Shown: in pieces, positions 25,772-39,605 of the stretch
Layout: every line of letters begins with the position of its first letter
How positions within the stretch are numbered: the first letter of the stretch is position 1
Origin: Polyangiales bacterium
GTDB taxonomy: Bacteria > Myxococcota_A > Polyangia > Polyangiales > Ga0077539
Direction: 5' to 3'
Assembly (NCBI GenBank): GCA_044229975.1
Contig: JBGARZ010000002.1
Span: 224,001-288,000, forward strand
DNA length: 64,000 bases
Translations under genes and position numbers: made by a program
Notes under the pieces: generated by a model
Databases searched by the model: none
The model's input: the letters and a program-made list of their open reading frames with translations, nothing else
What the model was told of the DNA's origin: nothing

Positions 25772-28453
25772 ATGCCAGCCTCGTCGCCTGACCAACGACC
25801 GTCTCTCACGCGCGGACTCGGACTCTCCGCAGGCATCGTCGCGTTTGGCGGGGTCGGCATCGCGGACGGCGTCCTCGCGTGGTCGCGCGCCCCGCGTGGA
25901 TCGCTCCCCCCATCGCTCGGGCTGCTGGTGGTGCTCCAGTGCGCGGCCATCCTGGTGAGCTTCGGCATCGGGCTGGGTCTGTTGGAAGAGCTGGTGCTGG
26001 TCTCGGCGCGGCGCGTCCCGTGGTTGCAGCGCGTGGGCTCTTGGTGCCTCGGCGGCCCGCGGCGGTGGTTCGCTCGCGACCCCGACGGCGCGGCCATCGT
26101 CGCGTCGACGGCCATCGGGGTGGGCGTCGCGTTTGGCCCGCTGTACCCGCTCGCGCACTCGGTGTTTCACACCTTCCACTCGCGCTCGCTCGCGGCGCTG
26201 GCGGTGTTTCTCGCGCCCTTCGGCTTCGCCCTCGGCGCGATCGTCCTGCTGCTCCTCCTGTCGGGTCCGCTGCGGTGGTTCTTCCACCGCGTCGGGCGCG
26301 TCGCGTCGGTGGGGACGATGCTGTCGCTGTCGCTCTTCGTGGCGGTGGCGCAGTCGGTGCGGTTCTTCTCGCTCAACTGGGCGTCGTTTCGAAACCTCGA
26401 GTTCGGCGCCGTGGCGCTCGGGACGGCGCTGCTCGTCGCCAACGCGCTCGCGCTGCTGGGCTTCGGTCGTCGCGTGCTGCGCCTCGATCGTCCGCTGCGC
26501 TGGCGCGTGCCCTTCGCGCTGATGGTGATGGCGCTCGGGGCCTTCGTGACGTCGGCGTTTACGCTGGGCGCGCGGCAGACGGTGGCGGCGACGCTCTTCA
26601 ACCGCAGCCTCCTCGCGCAGCGGGTGGCGCGCGGCTTTCAGTTGAGCCTCGACCTCGACGGCGACGGCTACTCCGCGGTGTTCAACGGCGGCGACTGCAA
26701 CGACCGCGACGCGCGCATCTCACCGCGGGCGCACGACATCCCCGGCAACGGCCGCGACGAAAACTGCACCGGCCGCGACGCGCGCGTCGAGCGTGACGAG
26801 AGCGACGGTCACATCGTCCCGCTGCCGCCCGACGCGGCGACGCAGCGACCGAGCTTCGTGCTGCTCTCCATCGACGCGATGCGGCCCGACCACATGGGCT
26901 GCTACGGCTACCGCCGACCGACGACGCCCAACATCGATCGCTTCGCGCGCGGAGCGGCTCGCTTCACCAACGCGTACTGCGCATCGCCGCGCTCGCTGCG
27001 GTCGTTCGGGAGCATCTGGGCGGGGCGGTATGCGTCGATGGTTGCGTGGGGCAACGACGTGCAGTTTCCCCCGTTGGAGGCGTCCAACGTGACGCTCGCC
27101 GAGCAGCTCGGGTCGGCCGGGTACGCGACGGCGGCCTTCAACAACACGAGCTACTTCTCGCACACGGCGGGCTTCTTCCAGGGCTTCACGCAGGTGGCCG
27201 AGGAGTACGGGTTCAAGTCCGAGGTGGCTCCCACCATCGCGCGCATCCAGTCATTTCTGCGCGACCACGAGGGCGACCCGGCGCCGTTCTTCCTGTGGTC
27301 GCACCTGATGGAGCCGCACGACCCCTACCGCGACCGCACCGCGCCGCGCGACTTCGGCCACACGCCGATGGACACCTACGACGAGGAGATCGCCGCCGCC
27401 GACGACGCCCTCGGCGCGGTGCTCACGCAGCTCGACGCGCTCGCCACGCGACGTCCGCTGGTGGTGGTCATCTTTGGCGACCACGGCGAGGCCTTCGGCG
27501 AGCACGGCGTCTACCACCACTCCTTCGACCTCCACGAAGAGGCGCTGCGGGTGCCGATTCTCATCCGTGGTCCGGGCATCGCGCCGGGGCCGCGCAACGC
27601 GCTGACCAACCTGTTCGACCTGCACCCGACGCTGCTCAACTTCGCCAACCGCCGACCCGAGGCGCCCGTGTCGGGGCGCTCGCTCCTGCCGGTGCTCTTC
27701 GACCCGTCGCCGTCGACCATCACGCCGCCCGGTTGGCGCACGTCGATGTACGGCGAGGTCACGCCCGACGGGGTGTTTCCGTCGGAGCAGAAGTCCATCT
27801 ATGCGCCGCCGTTCAAGCTCATCCACGACCTGAGGCGCGGGACCTGGGAGCTGTTCGACATCGCGCACGACCGCGGCGAGATCCACAACCTCTACGACGC
27901 GCGCCCCGAGCTCGCGGCCGACCTGCGTGAGCGACTGGTGACGTGGACCGACCACGCCGCCACGGCGGGCAACAGCTCCAACGAGCTCATTGCGGCGGCG
28001 CGGTTGACGGCGGTTCCCGCGAACATCCAGCACCCGATGAACGTGCGCTTCGGCGACATCGCGGAGCTGCTCGGGTACGACCTCCCGGCCGATCGTGTGC
28101 CCATCGAGGGGACGTACCGCGCGGTGTTCTACTGGCGCGTGCTGCGTCGCACGCGGGTGCCGGTGTTGATGGTGACGTCCTTCGATCCGGTGGACGGACA
28201 GCCCATCTGGCCGCTCTTCGTCGCGCGGCACGTTCCCATCTACGGGCGCTACCCGACGACGGAGTGGCGCGCGGGAGAGATTCTCCGCGACGAGGTGACG
28301 TTGCGGGTCGACCCGGAGATGCGCGCGGCGCGGCTGCGAACCTTCGTCTCGCTGGAGATCGCCGAGACCGCGCAGAGGATTCCGCCGCTCACGGTGACGG
28401 CGCCCGACGCGCGGCTGGAGATCACCGCGGTCGACATCCTGCCGCGCCAATAG
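25772..28453 (+). CDS. Membrane-bound sulfatase-like (alkaline phosphatase superfamily) protein with putative metal-binding motif
   Basis: About 7 N-terminal TM segments; DLDGDGYS...DCND...GNGRDENC; SIDAMRPD, TTPNID, HLMEPH, GDHGEAFGEHG. Confidence 0.85.
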   Translation: MPASSPDQRPSLTRGLGLSAGIVAFGGVGIADGVLAWSRAPRGSLPPSLGLLVVLQCAAILVSFGIGLGLLEELVLVSARRVPWLQRVGSWCLGGPRRWFARDPDGAAIVASTAIGVGVAFGPLYPLAHSVFHTFHSRSLAALAVFLAPFGFALGAIVLLLLLSGPLRWFFHRVGRVASVGTMLSLSLFVAVAQSVRFFSLNWASFRNLEFGAVALGTALLVANALALLGFGRRVLRLDRPLRWRVPFALMVMALGAFVTSAFTLGARQTVAATLFNRSLLAQRVARGFQLSLDLDGDGYSAVFNGGDCNDRDARISPRAHDIPGNGRDENCTGRDARVERDESDGHIVPLPPDAATQRPSFVLLSIDAMRPDHMGCYGYRRPTTPNIDRFARGAARFTNAYCASPRSLRSFGSIWAGRYASMVAWGNDVQFPPLEASNVTLAEQLGSAGYATAAFNNTSYFSHTAGFFQGFTQVAEEYGFKSEVAPTIARIQSFLRDHEGDPAPFFLWSHLMEPHDPYRDRTAPRDFGHTPMDTYDEEIAAADDALGAVLTQLDALATRRPLVVVIFGDHGEAFGEHGVYHHSFDLHEEALRVPILIRGPGIAPGPRNALTNLFDLHPTLLNFANRRPEAPVSGRSLLPVLFDPSPSTITPPGWRTSMYGEVTPDGVFPSEQKSIYAPPFKLIHDLRRGTWELFDIAHDRGEIHNLYDARPELAADLRERLVTWTDHAATAGNSSNELIAAARLTAVPANIQHPMNVRFGDIAELLGYDLPADRVPIEGTYRAVFYWRVLRRTRVPVLMVTSFDPVDGQPIWPLFVARHVPIYGRYPTTEWRAGEILRDEVTLRVDPEMRAARLRTFVSLEIAETAQRIPPLTVTAPDARLEITAVDILPRQ

Positions 28454-28551: not shown

Positions 28552-30000
28552 ATGGCGGGTGTGAAGTCGTGGAAGTTTGGTGACGCGAGCGCTCCGGCAT
28601 TTCCCGATGATTTCGAGATCGCGCGCAAGGCGGTGTTGCAGGTCACGGACATCAAGACCAACCACAACAAGTACTACGCGGTGGAGGTCCACCAGGGGAC
28701 GTTGAAGGGCAAGCCGGTGTTCCGTGTGTTCACGCACTACGGGCGCACCGATGACCTGGAGAACAACCCCGAGGCGGGGCAGAAGGAGTGCCGCTACGCC
28801 AACACGCTGGGCGAGGCGCAGGCCATCTACGACGGCATCTATCGCGAGAAGACCTCGGCGGCGAAGGGCTACAAGGAGCTGAGCCTCGCATCGAGCAAGA
28901 TCGGCTCGCAGAAGGCGCGCGGCACGAGCGCGGGCGAGGTCGACGCCAAGACCATCAAGCGGCTCGCCGAACAGAAGGTGGCGCGCGGCGAGGTCGCGGC
29001 GACGACCATCAAGGTGTCCAACCTGAGCCCGACGGTGCAGTCGTTGGTGAAGTTGATCTACGCCGAGGCGACCAACGCGCTGACGACGGCCGTCAACGTG
29101 AAGATCACGGCCAACGGCATCGAGACGCCGCTGGGCATCCTGACGGTGGGGCAGATCGAGAAGGGAGAGTCCATCCTTCAAGACCTGTACAAGCTCTTTC
29201 AACAGGGCTCGAAAAACCGCAACAAGATGATCGACCTGTCGGGGGACTTCTATACGACCATCCCGCATCGCATCGGTCGCACGCGGGCCGCCATCGATGA
29301 AGCGGTGATCGACACGATGGAGGACTTCGAGGCCAAGCAGGAGACCCTTCAGCTCATGAAGGACATGCTCCAGGTCAACGGCGACGGCGGATCGGTGCTC
29401 TTCGAGAGCAAGGTCGACGAGCAGTACGAAGCGCTCAAGTGCGGCATCACGATGCTGGAGCGGTCGAACCCGACCTACGACGAGATCGAGCAGTTCGTCC
29501 TGAAGAGCCAGATCAAGACGAAGGCCATCAAGGTGAAGAACGTCTACACCCTGCGGCGCGCTGGCGAGCACGAGGTGTTCACCAACCACATCGACAACCA
29601 GCGGCTGCTCTTCCACGGCTCGCGCATCAAGAACTGGGTGGGCATTCTCTCGCGCGGCATCCTGATGCCGAAGATCGTCGTGAGCATGGGCGTCAACCGC
29701 ACCGACGCGGGCTGGCTCGGCAACGGCATCTACTTCGGCGACGCGTCGTGCACGAGCGCGTTCTACACGTCGCCGGCGAAGTCGGGCGCGCGCTTCATGG
29801 CGCTGGCGAAGGTCGCGCTCGGCAAGATGAAGCCGTACACGAAGATCACCTACGGCATCGCCGAGGCGCCCGCGGGCTTCAACTCCTGCCACGGCGTGCG
29901 AAACCAGAAGGGCAACGACTCGCAGTTCTCCGATGACGAGTACGTGATCTACGACTCGCGTCAGCAGCGCCTGGATTACCTGGTCGAATTCACGATGTAG
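28552..30000 (+). CDS. Poly(ADP-ribose) polymerase (WGR + regulatory helical + catalytic ART domains)
   Basis: NHNKYY...THYGRT (WGR); PLGIL and FYTTIPH (regulatory); LLFHGSR, GIYFG, DDEYVIYD (H-Y-E triad). Start moved to ATG 28552. Confidence 0.92.
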   Translation: MAGVKSWKFGDASAPAFPDDFEIARKAVLQVTDIKTNHNKYYAVEVHQGTLKGKPVFRVFTHYGRTDDLENNPEAGQKECRYANTLGEAQAIYDGIYREKTSAAKGYKELSLASSKIGSQKARGTSAGEVDAKTIKRLAEQKVARGEVAATTIKVSNLSPTVQSLVKLIYAEATNALTTAVNVKITANGIETPLGILTVGQIEKGESILQDLYKLFQQGSKNRNKMIDLSGDFYTTIPHRIGRTRAAIDEAVIDTMEDFEAKQETLQLMKDMLQVNGDGGSVLFESKVDEQYEALKCGITMLERSNPTYDEIEQFVLKSQIKTKAIKVKNVYTLRRAGEHEVFTNHIDNQRLLFHGSRIKNWVGILSRGILMPKIVVSMGVNRTDAGWLGNGIYFGDASCTSAFYTSPAKSGARFMALAKVALGKMKPYTKITYGIAEAPAGFNSCHGVRNQKGNDSQFSDDEYVIYDSRQQRLDYLVEFTM

Positions 30001-30011
30001 GGAGAGTTGCC

Positions 30012-30794
30012 ATGGATGCTCAGGTGATCCTGGTGGATGTGAATCCGAAGATGGTGGCGGCGTGGCGGGAGGTCTTCGTCGACCACCCGGAGGTGCTGAT
30101 CGTCCATGGGTCGATGACCGACCAGGCGACGAGCGCGTGGGTCACGCCGACCAACAGCCGCGCGCAGATGGACGGCGGGCTTGATGGGGTGATCAAGAAG
30201 TTCCTGGGGCCGTCGATCCAGACGAAGGTGCAGTCGGAGGTGGCGAAGCGGTACCAGGGGACGATGCCGCTGGGTCACGCGACCTGTGTGGCGACGGGCG
30301 CGCCGAAGCCGCGGTGGCTCATCTCGACGCCGACCATGGTGGGCCGCTCGGACGACGTGTCCGATACGCTCAACGTGGCGCTCGCGTGCGCGGCGGCATT
30401 CCAGATGGTGCGGATGCAGAACGCGGCGGCGCCGGGGAGCATCGGCTCGGTGGCGCTGCCGGGCTTGGGCGCCAACACGGGCAAGGTGCCGGTGGAGATC
30501 TGCGCCGACCTGATGTGGACGGCCTACAACCTGGTCAGCAACCAGAACTTCACGGGCTTCCACGACATGCGCGTGGCGCTGGAGGCCGAGCTCGGAGCGC
30601 TCGGCAATGACGTGCAGGCCAAGCCGGTGACGAGCGCGCCCATGTACAAGGGCGGCGTCGTGCCGACCAAGGCCGCGGTGATGGCGGCGAAGGGTCCGAT
30701 GATTCCACCGAAGGGCCCGGTGATTCCGCCGAAGGTGGTGGGTGGCGTGGTGCCGAAGCCCAAGCCGCTGGCTGACTTCGACGACACCGAGTGA
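30012..30794 (+). CDS. Macrodomain protein (ADP-ribose binding/hydrolase)
   Basis: VHGSMT, WVTPTNSRAQMDGGLD, LISTPTM, VALPGLGANTG; GGAG RBS right after the PARP stop. Confidence 0.85.
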   Translation: MDAQVILVDVNPKMVAAWREVFVDHPEVLIVHGSMTDQATSAWVTPTNSRAQMDGGLDGVIKKFLGPSIQTKVQSEVAKRYQGTMPLGHATCVATGAPKPRWLISTPTMVGRSDDVSDTLNVALACAAAFQMVRMQNAAAPGSIGSVALPGLGANTGKVPVEICADLMWTAYNLVSNQNFTGFHDMRVALEAELGALGNDVQAKPVTSAPMYKGGVVPTKAAVMAAKGPMIPPKGPVIPPKVVGGVVPKPKPLADFDDTE

Positions 30795-30847: not shown

Positions 30848-33382
30848 ATGAGCGTTCGAGGGATCGTGATGCGAATGTTCCGCCCGACCGGGGCGGAGCG
30901 GTTGGTGGCCATCTCGGCGGAGTCGGTCGCGGGGTCACCCGGGCGGCTGACGCTGAAGGTTCAGCGGTTCTTCCGGCGGGGGAAGCTCACGGGAACGGAG
31001 GCGTATGGGCCCTTCCCCGAGGCGGAGCTGGAGCAGCGGCTCGCGGACCTCGCCGACGACCTCGCGTCGGAGGGGTACACGCGCGCCGGGGTGCGGGCGA
31101 TGATCGATCGCCTGCAGAGTCCGAGCGCCCGTCGTCGCGCGATGTCGGCCGCGCGGCTCGGGTGGATCGGCGATCGCGCCGCGGTCGATCCGCTGCTTGA
31201 TCGGGCGACGTTGGAGGGCACGGAGCTCACCAGCGTGGTCGAGGCGCTGGGTCGGCTGGGCGACCTGACGGCGGCGCCGCTGGCGCGTGCAGAGGCCGAG
31301 CGGAAGCTGTTGTCGCGGCGTCGGGCGGGCGCCGAGGCGCTGCGCGCGATGGGCGATGCGGTGGGTTTGGCGGAGGTGGTGCAGCGGGCCGTCGATCGGC
31401 TGCCGCAGGCGATGCGCGACGCGTGGAAGGCGACGGACGCGAGCGCCCACGAAGAGGACGCGCTCGTCGACCTGGAGACGGTGTTCGCCCACCTCGACGT
31501 GAAGGAGCAGTTTCTCGCGTTGGACTCGCTGTATGAGGTGGCGACGCCGCTGGCGCTGGCCTTCGTGCGGCGGGTGTTGTCGACGCACGCGGAGGTGCAC
31601 CGGCCGCATCGCTGGCGATACACCAAGAGCATCCTGCGACGCGCGACGATGCGTGACGATGCGGAGACCTTCGGGGTGATCATGCGGCGGGTGGAGCTGC
31701 TGAGTCGCAAGCCGGCGATGACCATGGCGGTGGTGAAGAGCGGGCTCGACGGTCAGAGTCGGCAGACGCGGGTGTTCAGCAAGCAGACCGAGCGGCACGT
31801 TCGCAAGGCGAGCTGGCGCTACCTCGAACGCCTCGGTCGCTATCGCCCCGCCCGCTACACCGAGGTCGCGGCGGGCTTCCTCGCGGCGCTGCGCCCGGAG
31901 GATCGCGAGCTGCCGAAGGGTGACGGCGACGAGTGGTCGCGGGTGTTTCTCTACAACCGCATCCTGCGGCGCTTCGATGCGCGGGTGAGGTTGAATCCGA
32001 AGACGCTGCGAAGCGCGGTGCCGGTGACCAAGGGGGCGAAGGGCGCGGCGATCAGCGACCAGCGGGTCGAGTCGTTTCCGGGGCTGTGGGACGCGTATCC
32101 GCGGCCGCTGCTCACGCTGCTGGCGAAGGCGCGCGCGACGGAGGTGCAGCAGTTTGCGCTGCTGGCGGTGAGACGGCGGCATCCCGATTTGTTGCGTGAG
32201 GCGACGGCGCAGGAGCTCGCCGACATGCTGACGGCGGCACACCCGGACGTGTTGGAGCTCGCGGTCAACGAGCTCGATCGGAGGTTCGATCCGGCGAAGC
32301 CCGACTGGGCTTTGCTCGAAGCGTTGATGGTCGACGATCGCGCGGTGATTCGTGAGCACGCGGTCGCGATGCTGGCGCGTTGCGCCGATCAGTGGACCTC
32401 GGACATCGAGCGGGTGATGCGCTACGTGGGCGCGTCGGACGCGGCGCTCCGATCGACGGCGGCGTCGGTGGTGCTGGCGGCGCTGCCCGCGGCGGACGCG
32501 TGGTTTCGTCGCGAGCTTGCCGAGCGGGTGCTGGCGAAGTTGCAGTCCGTGGAGCCGACGGAAGGAGCGCACGATGGCTACGCGCGCGTCGCGCGAGATG
32601 GGCTGTCCGAAGAGCTCAACGCCATCCTCGGGCTCGACGAGATTCTCGCGATGATCGACGGCGGGTCGATCGCGGCGAAGGTGGCGGGCGGGGCGCTGCT
32701 GGGGTCGCGGCCCGAGGCGGTGGAGACGCTCGGGACCGATCGCATCCTGGCGATGGCGATGAGCGACATCGCGGCGGTGCGGGCGTCGGCGCACGCGCTG
32801 CTCCACGGCGCGGTGGCGAAGCTGCGAGCTGATCCGTCGGTGCTCTTCGCGCTGACAGACTCGGAGTGGAAGGACACGCGGACCTTTGCGTTCGAGCTGC
32901 TGCGCGGGCCGGTGGACGTCGCGGCGCTGGGCCTCGATGGCATCGTGGGCCTGTGTGATTCCAATCGCGAAGACGTGCAGGGCTTCGGGCGCGAGATGGC
33001 GCTCAAGCACTTCGACGCGCTCGACACCGCGGAGCTGCTGCACCGGCTGGCGGAGCACCCGTCGGCGGTGATTCGTCGCTTCGCGGTCGACCTCGCGGTG
33101 GCGCACTTGAAGGACGGCTTCGTGGCGCTGTCGCGGCTGGAGGCGTTCTTCCGCAGGTCGTTGTTGGACGTGCGGCCTGACCGGCGCGAGAAGCGTCTGG
33201 TGGTGGACTTCCTGCGCGAGCGCGGACTGCGCGACGAGCGGCAGGCAGAGGTCGCGTCGCGGGTGCTGGGTGAGTTCGTGCGGACGCGGGGGAAGGCGGA
33301 CTTCGAGAGCGCGCTCGATGCGCTGGTGCGACTGAAGCTGCGCTACCCCGAGGTCGAGTCGGTGGTCGGAGGTCTCGCGTGA
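30848..33382 (+). CDS. HEAT/ARM-repeat protein with degenerate N-terminal WGR-like domain
   Basis: Repeated HEAT-like units (ARRRAMSAARLGWIG, VVEALGRLG, VRASAHALL, IRRFAVDLA); GGAG RBS; stop overlaps the next start (GTGA). Confidence 0.75.
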   Translation: MSVRGIVMRMFRPTGAERLVAISAESVAGSPGRLTLKVQRFFRRGKLTGTEAYGPFPEAELEQRLADLADDLASEGYTRAGVRAMIDRLQSPSARRRAMSAARLGWIGDRAAVDPLLDRATLEGTELTSVVEALGRLGDLTAAPLARAEAERKLLSRRRAGAEALRAMGDAVGLAEVVQRAVDRLPQAMRDAWKATDASAHEEDALVDLETVFAHLDVKEQFLALDSLYEVATPLALAFVRRVLSTHAEVHRPHRWRYTKSILRRATMRDDAETFGVIMRRVELLSRKPAMTMAVVKSGLDGQSRQTRVFSKQTERHVRKASWRYLERLGRYRPARYTEVAAGFLAALRPEDRELPKGDGDEWSRVFLYNRILRRFDARVRLNPKTLRSAVPVTKGAKGAAISDQRVESFPGLWDAYPRPLLTLLAKARATEVQQFALLAVRRRHPDLLREATAQELADMLTAAHPDVLELAVNELDRRFDPAKPDWALLEALMVDDRAVIREHAVAMLARCADQWTSDIERVMRYVGASDAALRSTAASVVLAALPAADAWFRRELAERVLAKLQSVEPTEGAHDGYARVARDGLSEELNAILGLDEILAMIDGGSIAAKVAGGALLGSRPEAVETLGTDRILAMAMSDIAAVRASAHALLHGAVAKLRADPSVLFALTDSEWKDTRTFAFELLRGPVDVAALGLDGIVGLCDSNREDVQGFGREMALKHFDALDTAELLHRLAEHPSAVIRRFAVDLAVAHLKDGFVALSRLEAFFRRSLLDVRPDRREKRLVVDFLRERGLRDERQAEVASRVLGEFVRTRGKADFESALDALVRLKLRYPEVESVVGGLA

Positions 33383-35067
33383 TCGTCGAGTTCAAGTACG
33401 CGGGCCAGAGCGGCATCGTGAGCGGGCTGCGCGACACGCGGGTGGGTCTCGCGACCAACAGCGTGCGCGACCCGGCGTTCTTCAAAGGAGTGATGCGCTC
33501 GCCGACGCTCTTCCGTGAAGGGATGGCGGCGCTCTATTCGGTGGTCGTCAGCGACTACAAGTTTCGCCCGCGCGACCGGCTGGCCTTCAAGGCGTGGCTC
33601 GACCAGCAGGACCAGAAGTTTCTCGCCAACCTGGGCAACCGCACCGAAGACGCCAGGCGACGCATCGCGGCGCTCGAAGCCCGGCGCGATGTGCTCGACC
33701 AGAAGCGCATCGACCGGCTCAAGCCCTTCTACCGGGCGCGCGCCGAGTACTTCGACTGGGTCTACACGCACCAGTACGAGCTGAAGTACCTGCTCGACCC
33801 GGTCATCACGGTGCACCCCGACGAGCTGTCCTTCGAGGCGTTTTCGAAGGACGAGAGCTCGTACGCGCGGGTGGGCGTGAAGTACGACCTCTTCGAGAAG
33901 ATCGACGAGTTCGCGTGCGGCACGACGAACATCGACTTCAGCGCGTCGCTGCACGGTGAGCTCGATCGGATGCGGAGCTATCGCCGTACGCGCTTCGACA
34001 TCGACCCGTCGGGCCTGGCGGTGGCGCGCGAGGGGAGCGCGTCGCACAAGGAGAAGAAGATCGACCTGCCTGAGAGCTGGGTGAAGGGATTTCTCCAGGT
34101 GCAGTCGGCGATGACGCTGGGGCTCACGCGGCTGCGCATCGAGCCGGTGGACCTCTACAACCTCTGCCGCTTTCTCAAGCGCCACAAGGCCAAGGAGTCG
34201 CCGCGGGCGATGCGGTGGGAGCTGGTCCCGGGCAAGCGCGCGCGGGTGGTGTTCGAGCCGTGGGAGGCCGCGGTGGAGATGGGCGCCAGCGCGGTGTACG
34301 ACGGCCCGAAACCGGTGAGCATCCGGACGTGGGGTCGCGATCGGTTGAGCACCCTCGCCCGCATCATCCCGATGGCTCAGCGCATCGACGTGTTTCTCGC
34401 CGGCACGGGGCTGCCGACGGTGTGGCTGGTCGACCTGGGTGAGATCACGTTCACGCTCGCGCTCTCGGGTTGGACCGACAACGACTGGACGGCGGGCACC
34501 GGGCGCTTCGATCTCCTGTCGCGCCGGATGGATGCGTCTCCGTTGGAGCTCGCTTCGACCTGGGATGCCCTCAAGGTGCAGCGGCGTGGCACGGACGTGG
34601 GGCTCTCACAAGCGACGGGCCTGGGGCTGGAGAAGACCCGCAGCGCCCTCTCGTATCTGTGTCAGGTGGGAAGGGCGATGTACGACCTGGGTGGCGGCGT
34701 CTATCGACAACGCGAGTTGTTCGCGGAGCCGTTTACCACCAAGGAGGCGGTGGCCGCGGCGGTGGCGCCTGCGCCGAGCGAGACCTCGCCCGCCGGGCAG
34801 AAGGCGCAGACCATCTTCAACGCGGGGGGCGTGCTCATCACGGCGCGGCGCCCGGTGTCCAATGGATACAAGCTGTCAGGTAGCGTGAAGGGGGTGGACG
34901 GTTATCGGTATCGCCCGATGCTGGGAGTGGACGCCGCGGGGAAGATCCTGGAGGCGACCTGTACTTGCGCCTGGTCGCAGAAGCATGGTCTAACGCAGGG
35001 GCCTTGTGAGCATGTGCTCGCGCTGCGCCTCGGCCACATGCACCGGCTCGAAGCCGAGGGCGCGTAG
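33379..35067 (+). CDS. SWIM zinc-finger domain protein
   Basis: C-terminal CTC-x12-CEH (CxC...CxH SWIM); DPVITVHPD, FEAFSKDESSY, DLPESWVKGFLQVQSA, LALSGW. Confidence 0.85.
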   Translation: MIVEFKYAGQSGIVSGLRDTRVGLATNSVRDPAFFKGVMRSPTLFREGMAALYSVVVSDYKFRPRDRLAFKAWLDQQDQKFLANLGNRTEDARRRIAALEARRDVLDQKRIDRLKPFYRARAEYFDWVYTHQYELKYLLDPVITVHPDELSFEAFSKDESSYARVGVKYDLFEKIDEFACGTTNIDFSASLHGELDRMRSYRRTRFDIDPSGLAVAREGSASHKEKKIDLPESWVKGFLQVQSAMTLGLTRLRIEPVDLYNLCRFLKRHKAKESPRAMRWELVPGKRARVVFEPWEAAVEMGASAVYDGPKPVSIRTWGRDRLSTLARIIPMAQRIDVFLAGTGLPTVWLVDLGEITFTLALSGWTDNDWTAGTGRFDLLSRRMDASPLELASTWDALKVQRRGTDVGLSQATGLGLEKTRSALSYLCQVGRAMYDLGGGVYRQRELFAEPFTTKEAVAAAVAPAPSETSPAGQKAQTIFNAGGVLITARRPVSNGYKLSGSVKGVDGYRYRPMLGVDAAGKILEATCTCAWSQKHGLTQGPCEHVLALRLGHMHRLEAEGA

Positions 35068-35069
35068 GA

Positions 35070-35362
35070 TGTCGAAGGAGGTGTTTCGAGAGGTCGATCG
35101 AGGACGGGGCGTGGTGAGTGCCTTAGCAATCTGTGCGGCGTTACGCCGCGCTTGTCGAAGTGCCCGCCATTCGTCACGAGCCCGTTCATCACACGCGTAC
35201 CCCGACGGTGCCCGGCGCCGTTCTGGTTGGGTGCCTCCGGCACCACGGCGCCATGGCACCATCGGGGTACGCTTTCAGTGGAACGGTCGCGTCCCAGGGA
35301 TGTTCGTAAGCCCACCGCGCCCCGTCCCCGATCGATCCTCGAAGCACCACTCTCTTCCGACA
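35070..35362 (+). ncRNA. Retron non-coding RNA (msr-msd)
   Basis: Terminal inverted repeat 35080-35116 / 35313-35348; CTTA 35122-35125 pairs with TAAG 35307-35310, leaving G35126 unpaired; msr hairpin 35133-35151; long msd hairpin 35195-35272; lies directly upstream of a retron-type RT. Confidence 0.85.
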
Positions 35363-35375
35363 ACGGAGGTCGCCC

Positions 35376-36761
35376 GTGGCCATTGACCACAAGGCCGCCC
35401 TCTACCGACGCCTCGTGCGCGAGGCGAGCGACGGCGCCGCGGTCGACCGTATGCGCGTCAACGGCTTCTGGCCGTGGGACCAAGGGATCCCCGCCGACCC
35501 GGCCGCCGAGCGGAAGGAGCGGGCCGAGATCGAGGGCGAGATCGCGAAGATCCAGGCCCAGTCGACCAAGGCCATCGACCCCGACAAGGCGCTGGCCCAG
35601 GAGCGCAAGCGGCGCTGGGAGGAGAGCAAGAAGCGCCGCGCGGCGAAGCGCCAGGAGCGCATGGCCAAGGCGAAGAAGCGCCGGGGCGACTTCCTCCTCT
35701 ATCGACAGCGCAACATCCTGCACCTCGGGATGGGCGTCAGCGCCGGGCTTCAGGACACCAATCCCGACACGCGTGAACTCGCGCGGCGCGGACTCCCCGT
35801 CGCCACGCAAGGCGCCGACCTCGCGATGATGATGGGGGTTCCGCTCGGCACGCTGCGCTGGTTGTGCTTCCACCGGAGGGGGGCGGCGCTGGTGCACTAC
35901 CACCGCTTCGGCATCCCCAAGAAGAGTGGCGGCATCCGCGCCATCTCGGCCCCGAAGCCTCGGCTCGCCAACGCGCAACGCTGGGTCTTTCAGAACATCC
36001 TCGAACGCCTCGACGTCGCACCGCCCGCGCATGGCTTCGTGCGGCACCGCTCCATCCTCACCAACGCGACCCCCCACGCAGGTCGCGCCGTGGTGATGAA
36101 CCTCGACCTCAAGGACTTCTTTCCTTCGGTGACGTTTCGTCGCGTGAAGGGGCTCTTCCGCAAGGTCGGATACAACGAGCACGTCGCGACCATCCTCGCG
36201 CTGCTCTGCACCGAACCGCCGCGGGCGAGGGTCGAGGTCGACGGTCGGGTGATCTACCTCGCGCTCGGCGACCGCGTGCTGCCGCAGGGTGCCTGCACCA
36301 GCCCGGCGATCACCAACGCCCTGTGCAAGCGGCTCGATGCGCGTCTGTCGGCGCTCGCGGCGCGACACGACTTCACGTACACGCGCTACGCCGATGACCT
36401 CACGTTCTCGGGAGAAGACGCCGCGCGCGTGGGTCGACTGCGACGCAGCGTGGTGAGCATCGTGACGTCGGAGGGCTTCACCGAAAACGCCGCCAAGACC
36501 CGCGTCATGCACAAGGGGTCGCGGCAGGAGGTGACCGGGCTCACCGTCAACGAGCGGCCGACGATGCCGCGCGACGAGTATCGGCAGCTCCGCGCGATGC
36601 TCCACAACGCGGCGAAGCTCGGCCTGGAGAGCCAGAACCGCGCACACCATCCGGCGTTTGCACAGTACCTCCAGGGACGCGTGGAGTTTGCGTGCTGGGC
36701 CGATCCGACGCGGGCGCCGAAGCTACGAGAGGCCCTCGCGGCTGCCCTCGCGCGAGGCTGA
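35376..36761 (+). CDS. Retron-type reverse transcriptase with charged N-terminal extension
   Basis: YADD at 36387-36398, NATPH (retron NAxxH), VTGL (retron region Y), DLKDFFPS, LPQGACTSP; GGAGGT RBS at 35365. Confidence 0.93.
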   Translation: MAIDHKAALYRRLVREASDGAAVDRMRVNGFWPWDQGIPADPAAERKERAEIEGEIAKIQAQSTKAIDPDKALAQERKRRWEESKKRRAAKRQERMAKAKKRRGDFLLYRQRNILHLGMGVSAGLQDTNPDTRELARRGLPVATQGADLAMMMGVPLGTLRWLCFHRRGAALVHYHRFGIPKKSGGIRAISAPKPRLANAQRWVFQNILERLDVAPPAHGFVRHRSILTNATPHAGRAVVMNLDLKDFFPSVTFRRVKGLFRKVGYNEHVATILALLCTEPPRARVEVDGRVIYLALGDRVLPQGACTSPAITNALCKRLDARLSALAARHDFTYTRYADDLTFSGEDAARVGRLRRSVVSIVTSEGFTENAAKTRVMHKGSRQEVTGLTVNERPTMPRDEYRQLRAMLHNAAKLGLESQNRAHHPAFAQYLQGRVEFACWADPTRAPKLREALAAALARG

Positions 36762-36770
36762 CGCCGCGCC

Positions 36771-39605
36771 CTACGGTGGGGCGACGAGCGGCACGGCGGC
36801 GATCATCACCACCGCGAACGCGACGGACGACTGAAGGCTGACGGCGCGCAATCGACGCGGGTCGTCGAAGGTGACGACGAGCTGCTGGGTTCCGCGGCGG
36901 AGCGCGAAGGGCGGGGCGTCTTCCACGGTGAGCGCGCCGGCGTCCCGCGCGTTGATCTGGAGGTAGATGCGCTGCACCGGCGCGGGCTGCCGAGCGCGGA
37001 GGGCGACGCGAACGCGTCGTTGAAAACGCGGGGCGTTGGAGCGCGAGCCGAGGATGGTGTTGCCGGGCTCCTGGGCGCGAGCGAGGAGGTCACCGGCGCG
37101 ATCGAGGGGGTCGTTGGCGCCGAGGCCCGACGCGAGGCGGGGCACGACGTCGGGGTCGCCGAGGCTGATGAGCGCGTCGAGCGCCGCGCGGCGAGTCAAC
37201 GGGTAGCGGGTGCGCGCGAGCGTGGCGACCAGCGGGGGAATCGCGGACGCGTCGCCGAGGGCGCCCAGCGCTTCGGCGCCGACGGGGGCGAGGCGCGGGC
37301 TCTCCAGCAGCGCCTGCCAGGTGGCGCGCGAGGTGGGTGATCGCGCCGCGAGGAGCAACGCGATGGCGCGGTCGCGCTCGGCGTCGGAGGCGTGCTCGTC
37401 GGCCGCCCACGCGTTGAGCACCGGGATCGCCGCGGGGACCCGAAGTGCAGCCAAACCGAGCGCCGCCCTCCGTCGCTGGGCCTCGTCCGACGTCGCGGTG
37501 AGCACGCGGGTGGCGATCTCCTGTCCGCGCGCGTCGCCCAGCATCACGAGCGACACGGCGGCCTCGTCGGACAAGGGCGCCGGTCGCGGCAGCAGCGAGG
37601 CGAGCGCTTCGCGGACCTCCGCCGAGCGGTCGTCGAGGTCACCGAGCACACGCGCTGCTCTCGCCGCGAGCTCGGGGTCGCTGGCGAGTAGCAGCATCGC
37701 GACCTCCCTGGCGGCGTTGCGATCCCCCTGGAGCGCCCGCGCGAGCGCCGCGGGGATGACGGCCTCGGTACGTCGTGAACGCGCCGCTGCTGCGTCGCCG
37801 TGGGCGCCCTCCCAGCCGACGACCAACGATCGCAGCGCTCGCGTTCGTGCGGGGTCTTCGTCGGCGCGGTTGCGGCGCTCGCCGGGGTCGCGGGTGAGGT
37901 CGTAGCGCTCAAGGGTTCCGTCGGCGTTGTCGACGATGAGCTTGTCGTCGCCGTCGACGACCATGCGGAGGGAGCCGGTCTCGGCGAAGGCCAGCGTGGG
38001 CGGGCGATCGGTGGTCGCCAACGCGCCGAGGTCGCTGCCCTCGACGCCGGGAGGGAGCGCGCTTCCGACGCCGCGGAGGATGGTGGGCAGGAGGTCGACC
38101 AGGCTCACCGGCGCGGAGACCACGCGCGGCGTCACGCCCGGCGCGACGATGATGAGCGGAACGCGCGCCTGCTCGTCGTAGAGGGAGGTTCCGTGGAAGG
38201 AGCCGCCGTGCTCGCCGAACTCTTCGCCGTGGTCGGCGGTGATGATCCAGGTGACGGGGCGCGCCCAGCCGTCGATGAGCGCGCCGAGGGCGTCATCGAC
38301 CGCGCTGCATTCGGCGTCGTAGCGGGCGCGGGCGTCGCTTCCGTAGGGGTGCTCCGGGTGGACGACGTAGGGCTCGTGCGGCTCGAAGAGGTGCAGCCAC
38401 GCGAAGCCATGTTGGTCGCGGCGGAGCGTTCGCGACCAGCGGAGGGCGTCCTGCACGCGGGTGTCGGCGGGGGCCCACGACTCGTCGGCCATCTGGAGAT
38501 CCCAATGACGAGAGGCCAACGTGCGGAAGCGATCGCCGTCGACGAAGAAGACCGCCGGCGGGTACCAGCCCGCGGTGGTGTAGCCCGCTTCGCGCAGACG
38601 ACCCGCGAGGGTCATGGTGCGACCGAAGCGCGCGCCGAGGGCCATGGCGGCGCGGGCGTGTGTTCCGGTCATGAGCGAGGCGAGCGAGTAGCTCGTATGC
38701 GGCGTGGCGGTGTACGCACGGCGGAAGAGCAGGCCGCGCGCAGCGAGCGCGTCGAGGCGGGGCATGCGACCGCGACCGCCGAGCGCGCGGAGGGCGTCGG
38801 CGCGAAGTGCGTCGACGGTGACCAGGACCACGTCGCCCTCGGAGAGGGGGAGAGATGCACCGTCGGTGCGGCGGGCGCGGCGGACGACAGGCGTCGCGTC
38901 GTCGCCCGGATGGAGGAGGCCGGCCAGGCGCGCCGTGTACTGGCCGAGCGGCGAGAGGCGTCGCACGGAGGCGCGGGCGCCGTGTCCCGAGAGTAGCGAG
39001 ATCACTGCCCACGTCATCAACGCGACGACGGGCGCGCGAACGAGCCACACGCGACGGCCCGAGGCGCGAGGTTCGTTGAGCGACGCGGCGCCGCACCACG
39101 CGGTCGTCGCGATCCAGGCGAGGAGCGCGTGCAGGAGCTCGTACTGCCGCACCAGCACCGTCGCGTGGATGAGGTAGAGCGCCGTCGCGCCCATCGCGAT
39201 GACCCAGGATGACGCGCGCAGCGGGCGCTCCCGGCGCGCGGCGAGGAGTCCCACGATGGCGCTCGCGACGACCGCGAGTGCAACCAGTGGGCGATGCAGG
39301 CCGAGGCGATGGATGCCCGTTCCGGAGAAGAGGGCGAGGCCCGCCCACGCGCCGAAGCCGGCCGCCGCGAGCGTCGCGACCGCGGGGCGCAGCGACGCGG
39401 GAATGCGCCGCCAGATCGCGGACGCCGCGACGCGAGCGACGCCGACCACCGTCACGGCGAGGGCCGACGCGCCGAGGACCGTGAACAATCCAACGGTCCA
39501 CGCACCCTGTGCATCGCGGGAGAGGGCCATCACGGCGTCGAGCACCGCCGCCGCTCCCGCGACCGCGAGCGTCGCGTCGATGGCCCTCCCGCGCGCGACC
39601 ATCAC
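36771..39605 (-). CDS. Membrane-bound sulfatase-like protein with C-terminal HEAT repeats
   Basis: N-terminal TM segments; VTVDALRAD, HLFEPH, ADHGEEFGEHG; HEAT-like repeats after about aa 610. Confidence 0.8.
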   Translation of the reverse strand: MMVARGRAIDATLAVAGAAAVLDAVMALSRDAQGAWTVGLFTVLGASALAVTVVGVARVAASAIWRRIPASLRPAVATLAAAGFGAWAGLALFSGTGIHRLGLHRPLVALAVVASAIVGLLAARRERPLRASSWVIAMGATALYLIHATVLVRQYELLHALLAWIATTAWCGAASLNEPRASGRRVWLVRAPVVALMTWAVISLLSGHGARASVRRLSPLGQYTARLAGLLHPGDDATPVVRRARRTDGASLPLSEGDVVLVTVDALRADALRALGGRGRMPRLDALAARGLLFRRAYTATPHTSYSLASLMTGTHARAAMALGARFGRTMTLAGRLREAGYTTAGWYPPAVFFVDGDRFRTLASRHWDLQMADESWAPADTRVQDALRWSRTLRRDQHGFAWLHLFEPHEPYVVHPEHPYGSDARARYDAECSAVDDALGALIDGWARPVTWIITADHGEEFGEHGGSFHGTSLYDEQARVPLIIVAPGVTPRVVSAPVSLVDLLPTILRGVGSALPPGVEGSDLGALATTDRPPTLAFAETGSLRMVVDGDDKLIVDNADGTLERYDLTRDPGERRNRADEDPARTRALRSLVVGWEGAHGDAAAARSRRTEAVIPAALARALQGDRNAAREVAMLLLASDPELAARAARVLGDLDDRSAEVREALASLLPRPAPLSDEAAVSLVMLGDARGQEIATRVLTATSDEAQRRRAALGLAALRVPAAIPVLNAWAADEHASDAERDRAIALLLAARSPTSRATWQALLESPRLAPVGAEALGALGDASAIPPLVATLARTRYPLTRRAALDALISLGDPDVVPRLASGLGANDPLDRAGDLLARAQEPGNTILGSRSNAPRFQRRVRVALRARQPAPVQRIYLQINARDAGALTVEDAPPFALRRGTQQLVVTFDDPRRLRAVSLQSSVAFAVVMIAAVPLVAPP

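Follow-up and report, generated by a model that had tools for sequence, protein, structure and literature searches.

Introduction

Type XIII is the class to which the first retron found belongs. Its described members (RT clade 10; Retron-Mxa1/Mx162, Mxa2/Mx65, Nex2/Ne144 and Sau1/Sa163), as presented in the type XIII passages of Mestre 2020 (PMC7736814), have a reverse transcriptase (RT) with an N-terminal extension, encoded last in the order ARM/HEAT gene, SWIM gene, msr-msd and RT; the SWIM protein carries a CxCx12CxH motif and the start of a DEDE motif, and the host group is myxobacterial. The same passages assign the type by a linked SWIM protein of cluster 114, and report covariance models of the type XIII msr-msd (Firmicutes, Ne144, Mx162 and Mx65) that are not in Rfam. 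Type XIII fills 17 rows of the 2024 census (Khan table), and the rows consulted hold no RT-DNA result. The accessible part of the literature searched contained no phage-defence test of a type XIII retron, and we found no mechanism for the type in the literature searched.

Retron RTs prime from a 2'-OH, RNase H trims the template, and a short RNA-DNA overlap is left at the 3' end (8 bases in Mx162), according to the biochemistry outlined in PMC6868368 and PMC7736814. Ec86-type and census retrons, as portrayed in the relevant sections of PMC6868368 and PMC10849725, share an unpaired G in TAGC, preceded by TTA, at the inner end of the terminal stem, G as the first cDNA base, a short msr hairpin and a long msd stem.

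Bacterial PARPs have a little known biological setting (PMC8120803, in the text available). Herpetosiphon HaPARP and CdPARP of C. difficile CD160 have the domain order WGR-PARP_reg-PARP, a YGR variant of the WGR motif and an H-Y-E triad, and WGR is the DNA-sensing part in known PARPs (available text of PMC8120803 and PMC5966428); two bacterial WGR-PARPs were reported to be active in vitro, one of them requiring DNA (PMC8120803). The word 'retron' has 0 occurrences in the available text of PMC8120803, and 'PARP' has 0 in the main texts of Mestre 2020 (PMC7736814) and of the 2026 SPIRE survey (PMC13712802); the accessible portion of Millman 2020 (bioRxiv) mentions neither PARP nor SWIM. We found no paper in the open literature describing a retron-PARP pairing; the supplement of Mestre 2020 might still include clusters of PARP or macrodomain proteins close to type XIII RTs.

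A type XIII retron operon headed by PARP and macrodomain genes

The window, a stretch of 64,000 nucleotides from a Polyangiales bacterium, contains an operon in the order PARP-macrodomain-ARM-SWIM-RNA-RT, all on the plus strand. Its protein-coding features are:

28552..30000, plus strand: WGR-PARP_reg-PARP gene, 482 aa, first of the block (Pfam)
30012..30794, plus strand: macrodomain gene, 260 aa, whose product is predicted to bind or erase ADP-ribose (Pfam PF01661, E=2.4e-11)
30848..33382, plus strand: type XIII HEAT/ARM-repeat gene, up to 844 aa (PADLOC WGR_XIII E=2.9e-104, HEAT-ARM_XIII E=2.2e-65)
33379..35067, plus strand: type XIII SWIM Zn-finger gene, 562 aa, start overlapping the ARM stop (PADLOC SWIM_XIII E=2.8e-181)
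35376..36761, plus strand: retron reverse transcriptase, 461 aa, with N-terminal extension and GGAGG 6 nt upstream (PADLOC RT_XIII E=4.8e-158; Pfam RVT_1)

The RT matched RT_XIII best among 60 PADLOC families (525 bits versus 364 for the next) and carries NATPH at 230 (NAxxH, region X), YADD at 338 and VTG at 386 (region Y), which correspond to the retron RT motifs named in the part of PMC6868368 on RT sequences. The SWIM protein contains CxCx12CxH at residue 528 (CTC...CEH), and DPVITVHPDELSFE forms the Dx7[D/E]x4E start of the DEDE motif. RT, gene order and SWIM motifs are thus those of type XIII, and loci at 81-88% RT identity are titled Myxococcaceae, Myxococcales or Deltaproteobacteria MAGs. 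In type XIII a WGR-like domain is expected at the N-terminus of the ARM protein; the one here had no Pfam WGR match, unlike that of the distant locus L010; a single-sequence model of its N-terminus was of low confidence (mean pLDDT 58; three strands and a helix), with a ribosomal protein as the best structural match (Z 6.8) and a PARP1 fragment at Z 4.2. No NCBIfam model scored above cut-off for any of the five operon proteins.

The operon differs from type XIII as published in that the WGR-PARP and macrodomain genes stand at its head. The gap between these two genes is 11 nt and that between macrodomain and ARM about 50 nt, on the same strand. The catalytic triad of the PARP (H355, Y394, E463) and its HYGR motif were conserved in 25/25 orthologues. 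Domain order, YGR variant and triad are those of HaPARP and CdPARP; the partner here, in contrast, is of the macrodomain family and weakly similar to known hydrolases, with weak PDB matches to O-acetyl-ADP-ribose deacetylases. We found no ADP-ribosylglycohydrolase gene at the locus (four lie elsewhere in this genome, G000), nor did any of 8 neighbour ORFs taken from related loci encode one. On either side of the block is a sulfatase-domain gene, at 25772-28453 and 36771-39605. The locus has housekeeping neighbours and host-like GC3 and does not lie in a defence island.

Two further WGR-PARP_reg-PARP genes, each followed by a histidine-kinase gene, were seen in G000 at L120:4817-6373 (C24) and L121:5528-7447 (C11). 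In the locus titled Holophagales, the operon PARP is fused behind an ATP-dependent DNA ligase (L001:897-3761; ligase-OB-WGR-PARP_reg-PARP, 954 aa).

Structure of the template RNA

The gap between the SWIM and RT genes is 308 nt long and is filled by the RNA at 35070-35362, on the plus strand. An earlier reading of this DNA from its letters alone (the first-pass annotation) had proposed here an unannotated msr-msd RNA with a branching G at 35126. The features are:

35070..35116, plus strand: 5' arm of the long inverted repeat that closes the RNA, made up of the outer TGTCG and 35080-35116; fold, and covariation in 16/22 tested pairs
35122..35125, plus strand: 5' side of the short helix before the branch G, pairing with 35307-35310; 4/4 pairs with compensatory changes
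35126..35126, plus strand: predicted branching (priming) G in TTAGC; invariant in the alignment
35133..35151, plus strand: msr hairpin of 8 bp closed by a 3-nt loop, which the RT likely recognises; pairing in 100% of the cells of 18 homologues
35168..35178, plus strand: conserved block CATTCGTCACG, where the RT is predicted to stop and RNA and DNA to overlap; 8/11 columns invariant in alignment A1
35182..35286, plus strand: msd, with lower helix 35183-87/35281-85, long stem 35195-221/35245-272 and cap hairpin 35230-44; fold, covariation and wobble asymmetry
35168..35305, minus strand: predicted msDNA, from the helix register and PMC10849725
35307..35362, plus strand: 3' arm, with proximal helix 35307-10, long stem 35313-48 and outer 35358-62; fold and covariation

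Reading the sequence base by base, we recovered every helix that had been proposed. The long stem 35080-35116/35313-35348 has 36 opposed positions, comprising 32 Watson-Crick pairs, 3 G-U pairs and 1 A.C mismatch, plus a bulged A35091; beyond it lies the outer TGTCG/CGACA pairing (35070-74/35358-62) and within it CTTA/TAAG (35122-25/35307-10). The msr hairpin GTGCGGCG-TTA-CGCCGCGC is at 35133-51, and the msd stem occupies exactly 35195-221/35245-272, with the cap GGTGCC-TCC-GGCACC at 35230-44 and the extension CCGTTC/GAACGG at 35182-87/35281-86. Compared with Ec86-type and census retrons, this RNA stands out by a very long terminal stem, of 36 pairs and the outer extension, and by an internal loop between that stem and the proximal helix of 3-4 bp.

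The region 35060-35370 folded at -179 kcal/mol (z=-9.83), and 0/100 shuffles were equally good. The minus strand reaches the same energy (-179, z=-10.5), so energy cannot choose the strand. In the single-sequence ensemble, pair probabilities were near 1 for the long stem and the msd stem, for the cap and, in the msr hairpin, for a core of 5 bp; they were only 0.16-0.29 for CTTA/TAAG and 0.24-0.38 for the three flanking pairs of the msr hairpin, and for these low-probability pairs the support comes from covariation.

We found no sigma-70 promoter or informative terminator at the locus. RNA-library contigs contain close relatives of the RNA: one 253-nt contig of X12 spans the RNA alone, and contigs of X3 and X5 extend from SWIM to the RT. 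This sequence was itself the query that retrieved the runs, and they give contigs only, which do not show transcription, so that neither level nor ends can be read from them.

Rfam has no family that matches the region at its threshold (3 chance matches). The description as unannotated holds for Rfam; models of the type XIII msr-msd have, however, been in print since 2020, so that this RNA, taken by itself, adds an ordinary member to a retron class already described.

Covariation and strand of selection

Covariation across homologous SWIM-RT intergenic regions, which the first-pass annotation had named as a check on its structure, was scored in an alignment of 18 such regions (A1). Of 1231 cells, 90.2% were paired, and two-sided (compensatory) changes were seen in 54/71 pairs; the structure is conserved. 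Slid registers paired at 38-43%, and 0/500 shuffles reached any of the measures, a figure that is not a probability since the sequences are related. All six helices covaried, the proximal helix in all four of its pairs, and the layout with inverted repeats at the ends, a short hairpin in the msr and a long stem in the msd was borne out. The first pair of CCGTTC/GAACGG is unpaired in 9/18 homologues. One sequence, L001, has an extra hairpin after the G and is mis-registered at the proximal helix; it was kept in the A1 scoring, where it lowers helix 2, and was left out of alignment A2 and of the 37-locus test of the proximal helix described below.

We asked on which strand each stem is selected by counting mismatches under strand-neutral pairing in 37 loci, with identical pairings counted once. 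The terminal/outer stem had 65 G-U against 39 A.C on the sense strand, and the msd stem 7 G-U against 34 A.C, a contrast whose Fisher value (p=8e-7) is overstated by kinship. An A.C on the RNA strand is a G.T on the cDNA strand. The msd stem of the window itself has 0 G-U and 2 A.C, and the msd cDNA strand folds with z=-6.6. The wobble bias is thus opposite in the two stems: selection seems to act on the outer stem as RNA and on the msd as its DNA copy, which is what a retron predicts. The earlier argument that G-U pairs suggest selection at the RNA level is therefore sustained for the outer stem (65:39) and reversed for the msd stem, where the A.C pairs lie on the RNA (7:34).

These results bear on the simplest alternative, a chance or mobile palindrome (a REP-like element or terminator) in GC-rich intergenic DNA with no relation to the RT. 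Both strands do fold equally well, and palindromic repeats are present in the related intergenic regions of L002 and L011. The region is, however, a single copy in the 10.0-Mb genome, every strong match to the RNA model sits between a SWIM gene and an RT gene, and a palindrome of this kind leaves both the covariation and the opposite wobble bias of the two stems without explanation; we regard it as hardly tenable.

Branch site and predicted msDNA

A wider alignment of 22 rows reached loci titled Bacteroidota, Verrucomicrobiota and Planctomycetota, and G35126 and C35127 were invariant in 22/22 of its rows. From this alignment we built a model, which detected the RNA at 15 more loci held out from its construction, each time between SWIM and RT; at all 15 this GC again follows a helix, 3 or 4 pairs long. 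Model R1 has an RNAalifold structure from which the proximal helix is missing, and was for that reason used for locus finding only.

Over 37 loci, the three proximal pairs were kept in 35. Their 20 distinct combinations formed 56/60 Watson-Crick pairs, compared with 32.4+/-3.7 after shuffling (0 of 10000 shuffles), a contrast that is slightly favoured by the placement of the G and the 3' CG by motif in short windows with the best-pairing CG chosen, and whose shuffle values, like the Fisher value above, are overstated because related genomes are not independent. The base before the branch G varied between A, G and T in step with its partner T, C and A, and the G and the 3' arm lay 176-188 nt apart. 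The proposal of G35126 as the branching G is upheld by its place behind a covarying helix of 3-4 bp in all 22 rows and 15/15 held-out loci, and it agrees with TAGC as the commonest priming context in the survey portion of PMC6868368.

G35306 faces G35126 and is just as conserved. It may pair with C35127, in which case the first templated base would be C35305 and the first DNA base G, in agreement with the statement in section 6 of the census (PMC10849725). The predicted msDNA is about 130-140 nt long and begins 5'-GAACATC...; it would measure 128-138 nt if the RT stops within 35168-35178, and so be shorter than the 162 nt of Mx162.

Could the branch nucleotide instead be G35118 or G35120, or the first copied base G35306 rather than C35305? 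The weakness of the proximal helix in single-sequence folding leaves room for another G, and G35306, given its conservation, may either pair with C35127 or serve as template. Against this, G35118, the alternative named earlier, is a G in 6/18 rows only and so is not conserved, G35126 alone follows a covarying helix in all groups, and the TAGC context also speaks for it. We judge these alternatives very improbable. With an adjacent RT_XIII gene (NATPH, YADD and VTG present) and six covarying helices, the retron identity that had been claimed is supported, and 35070-35362 is very probably the msr-msd RNA of a type XIII retron with its branch site at G35126. The RNA now has a well-supported branch site and is a ready-made donor scaffold.

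Co-occurrence of the retron and PARP

The retron sub-lineage was found in 21 of 61 relatives and a PARP orthologue also in 21, with both in 20 and neither in 39. The exceptions were G018 with the retron only (80% complete; SWIM in several frames, macrodomain kept) and G028 with PARP only (76% complete). Among 301 genomes sampled evenly across the phylum, type XIII SWIM was present in 35 and a Pfam PARP match in only 5, which were exactly the 5 with a SWIM identity of at least 58%, that is, this sub-lineage; the other 30/35 SWIM-positive genomes were without a PARP domain, which type XIII therefore does not require.

The five-gene order recurred in L001 (titled Holophagales, Acidobacteriota), L002 (titled Planctomycetaceae) and G481 (Planctomycetota), of which only G481 was found independently of the RT search. 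PARP was present in 2/251 genomes of the phylum of L002 and in 1/301 of that of L001, and all three lay inside the operon. Among 18 metagenome PARP loci, some of which duplicate genomes already counted, 15 were at 59% identity or above, with the macrodomain in 12/12 that reach past the gene and ARM in 8/9 that reach further; two at 45-46% lacked macrodomain and ARM.

Loss was seen within one genus. In G001 and G004 the block lies between a deoxyhypusine-synthase gene, which is not at this place in the window, and a sulfatase-like gene; the same two genes are adjacent in the same-genus G006, where the whole block is absent as a unit. G008, of the same genus, retains a relic of the RNA at the syntenic site (L123:1558-1883), with broken pairs uncompensated and the cap hairpin deleted; the last 24 SWIM codons remain there, and we found none of the RT, ARM, macrodomain and PARP genes at that position. 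Neither G006 nor G008 yielded a PARP domain.

On the SWIM tree, the PARP-positive rows form one side of a branch with support of 100, which indicates one acquisition and not many independent ones. The tree is a quick search with no mixture model; the omission of L053 (G018) flatters the one-change result, three rows are untested for PARP, and two rows are second retrons of PARP-positive genomes. PARP and SWIM distances correlated (r=0.87, 25 genomes), which is no proof of a link because vertical descent alone predicts a correlation.

PARP and macrodomain might be passengers, a two-gene ADP-ribosylation module that entered once beside the retron and was inherited with it, with no tie to the msDNA. 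The single origin on the SWIM tree would fit this, as would the lack of PARP in most type XIII retrons. Linkage is also loose: of the 20 relatives with both, 9 are contiguous, 9 have the PARP-macrodomain pair elsewhere, G053 is split at contig ends and G007 falls in neither class, and the pair is unlinked from the retron in G271 and G291 as well. Two further unlinked PARP paralogues, present in G000 and its kin and seen also in G009 and G018, stand alone in these genomes, so PARP genes can persist without this retron. However, even the unlinked orthologues are confined to genomes of the sub-lineage (20/21 PARP-positive relatives; 5/5 in the phylum sample), the gene order survives across three phyla, and G006, G008 and G018, in which the retron is missing or damaged, also lack the orthologue (G018 is 80% complete, and G006 and G008 are possibly single deletions). 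We therefore consider passengers unlikely. PARP appears to be kept and lost together with the retron, which likely ties the small DNA to ADP-ribose signalling; judged from sequence, a functional link between the two is somewhat probable.

A possible link between msDNA and ADP-ribosylation

The long terminal stem would join the ends of the RNA, and the 3-4 bp helix would set G35126 opposite G35306. The RT may grip the msr hairpin, as suggested by other retrons and, for Ec86, by the data cited in the part of PMC6868368 on RT recognition; its likely primer is the 2'-OH of G35126, with copying from near C35305 back to near 35170. The predicted product is a branched RNA-DNA with a hairpin DNA of 130-140 nt.

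For the proteins, we lean slightly towards an arrangement in which a complex of RT, msDNA, ARM and SWIM is the sensor and the DNA-activated WGR-PARP the output. If the msDNA were disturbed or exposed, this would trigger ADP-ribosylation and the use of NAD+, and the macrodomain would reverse ADP-ribosylation and hold the background down. More tentatively, the operon may represent a sub-type of type XIII with a eukaryote-like, DNA-activated PARP effector, a dedicated macrodomain eraser and the msDNA as the ligand that sets PARP activity; on this reading the dependence would continue in trans once PARP and macrodomain genes have moved to another place in the genome. That the msDNA regulates PARP directly is a suggestion we make with similar reserve. 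If true, this would be the first mechanism for type XIII retrons and for a large family of bacterial PARPs.

Where tested, retrons of other types are mostly anti-phage. The present system could instead serve at DNA breaks or in replication stress, with msDNA, SWIM and ARM tuning a PARP that marks DNA ends for repair. The ligase-PARP fusion within the L001 retron operon points to DNA-damage handling rather than abortive infection as the output, and the housekeeping neighbourhood and host-like codon use of the locus are in keeping with it. Vertical inheritance is reported for type XIII in the relevant passage of Mestre 2020 (PMC7736814), and the accessible portion of Millman 2020 (bioRxiv) reports two RT clades, not named in that portion, to be rarely near defence genes. 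The fusion was seen in one locus only, however, and patchy presence with loss within one genus is typical of conflict systems; together with the anti-phage record of the other types, this makes a repair role rather unlikely in our view. The operon matters more than the RNA: it is a five-gene unit kept and lost as a block, in which the questions of type XIII and of bacterial PARPs are testable together.

Observations on related loci

Several related loci depart from the arrangement in the window. The extra hairpin of L001 lies between the branch G and the msr hairpin (L001:8704-8994). L053 (1887-3551; G018) has low-identity SWIM matches in several frames beside an intact RT and an intact RNA, and no PARP orthologue was found for it. 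In L010:8464-8930 (titled Chryseobacterium), a single RT is preceded by two msr-msd copies in tandem that differ in their msd stems, and two type XIII SWIM-RT units lie tail to tail in L086:9966-17275 (G164). A second SWIM-RT group (L061-L063, L095-L099) has a longer SWIM-RT spacing (about 0.75-1.5 kb) and weak or no RNA-model scores, which suggests another msr-msd class. On contigs C4, C14, C32 and C34 of G000, five weak matches to the RT share the same score (27% over residues 180-343) and are probably copies of one group II intron-like element.
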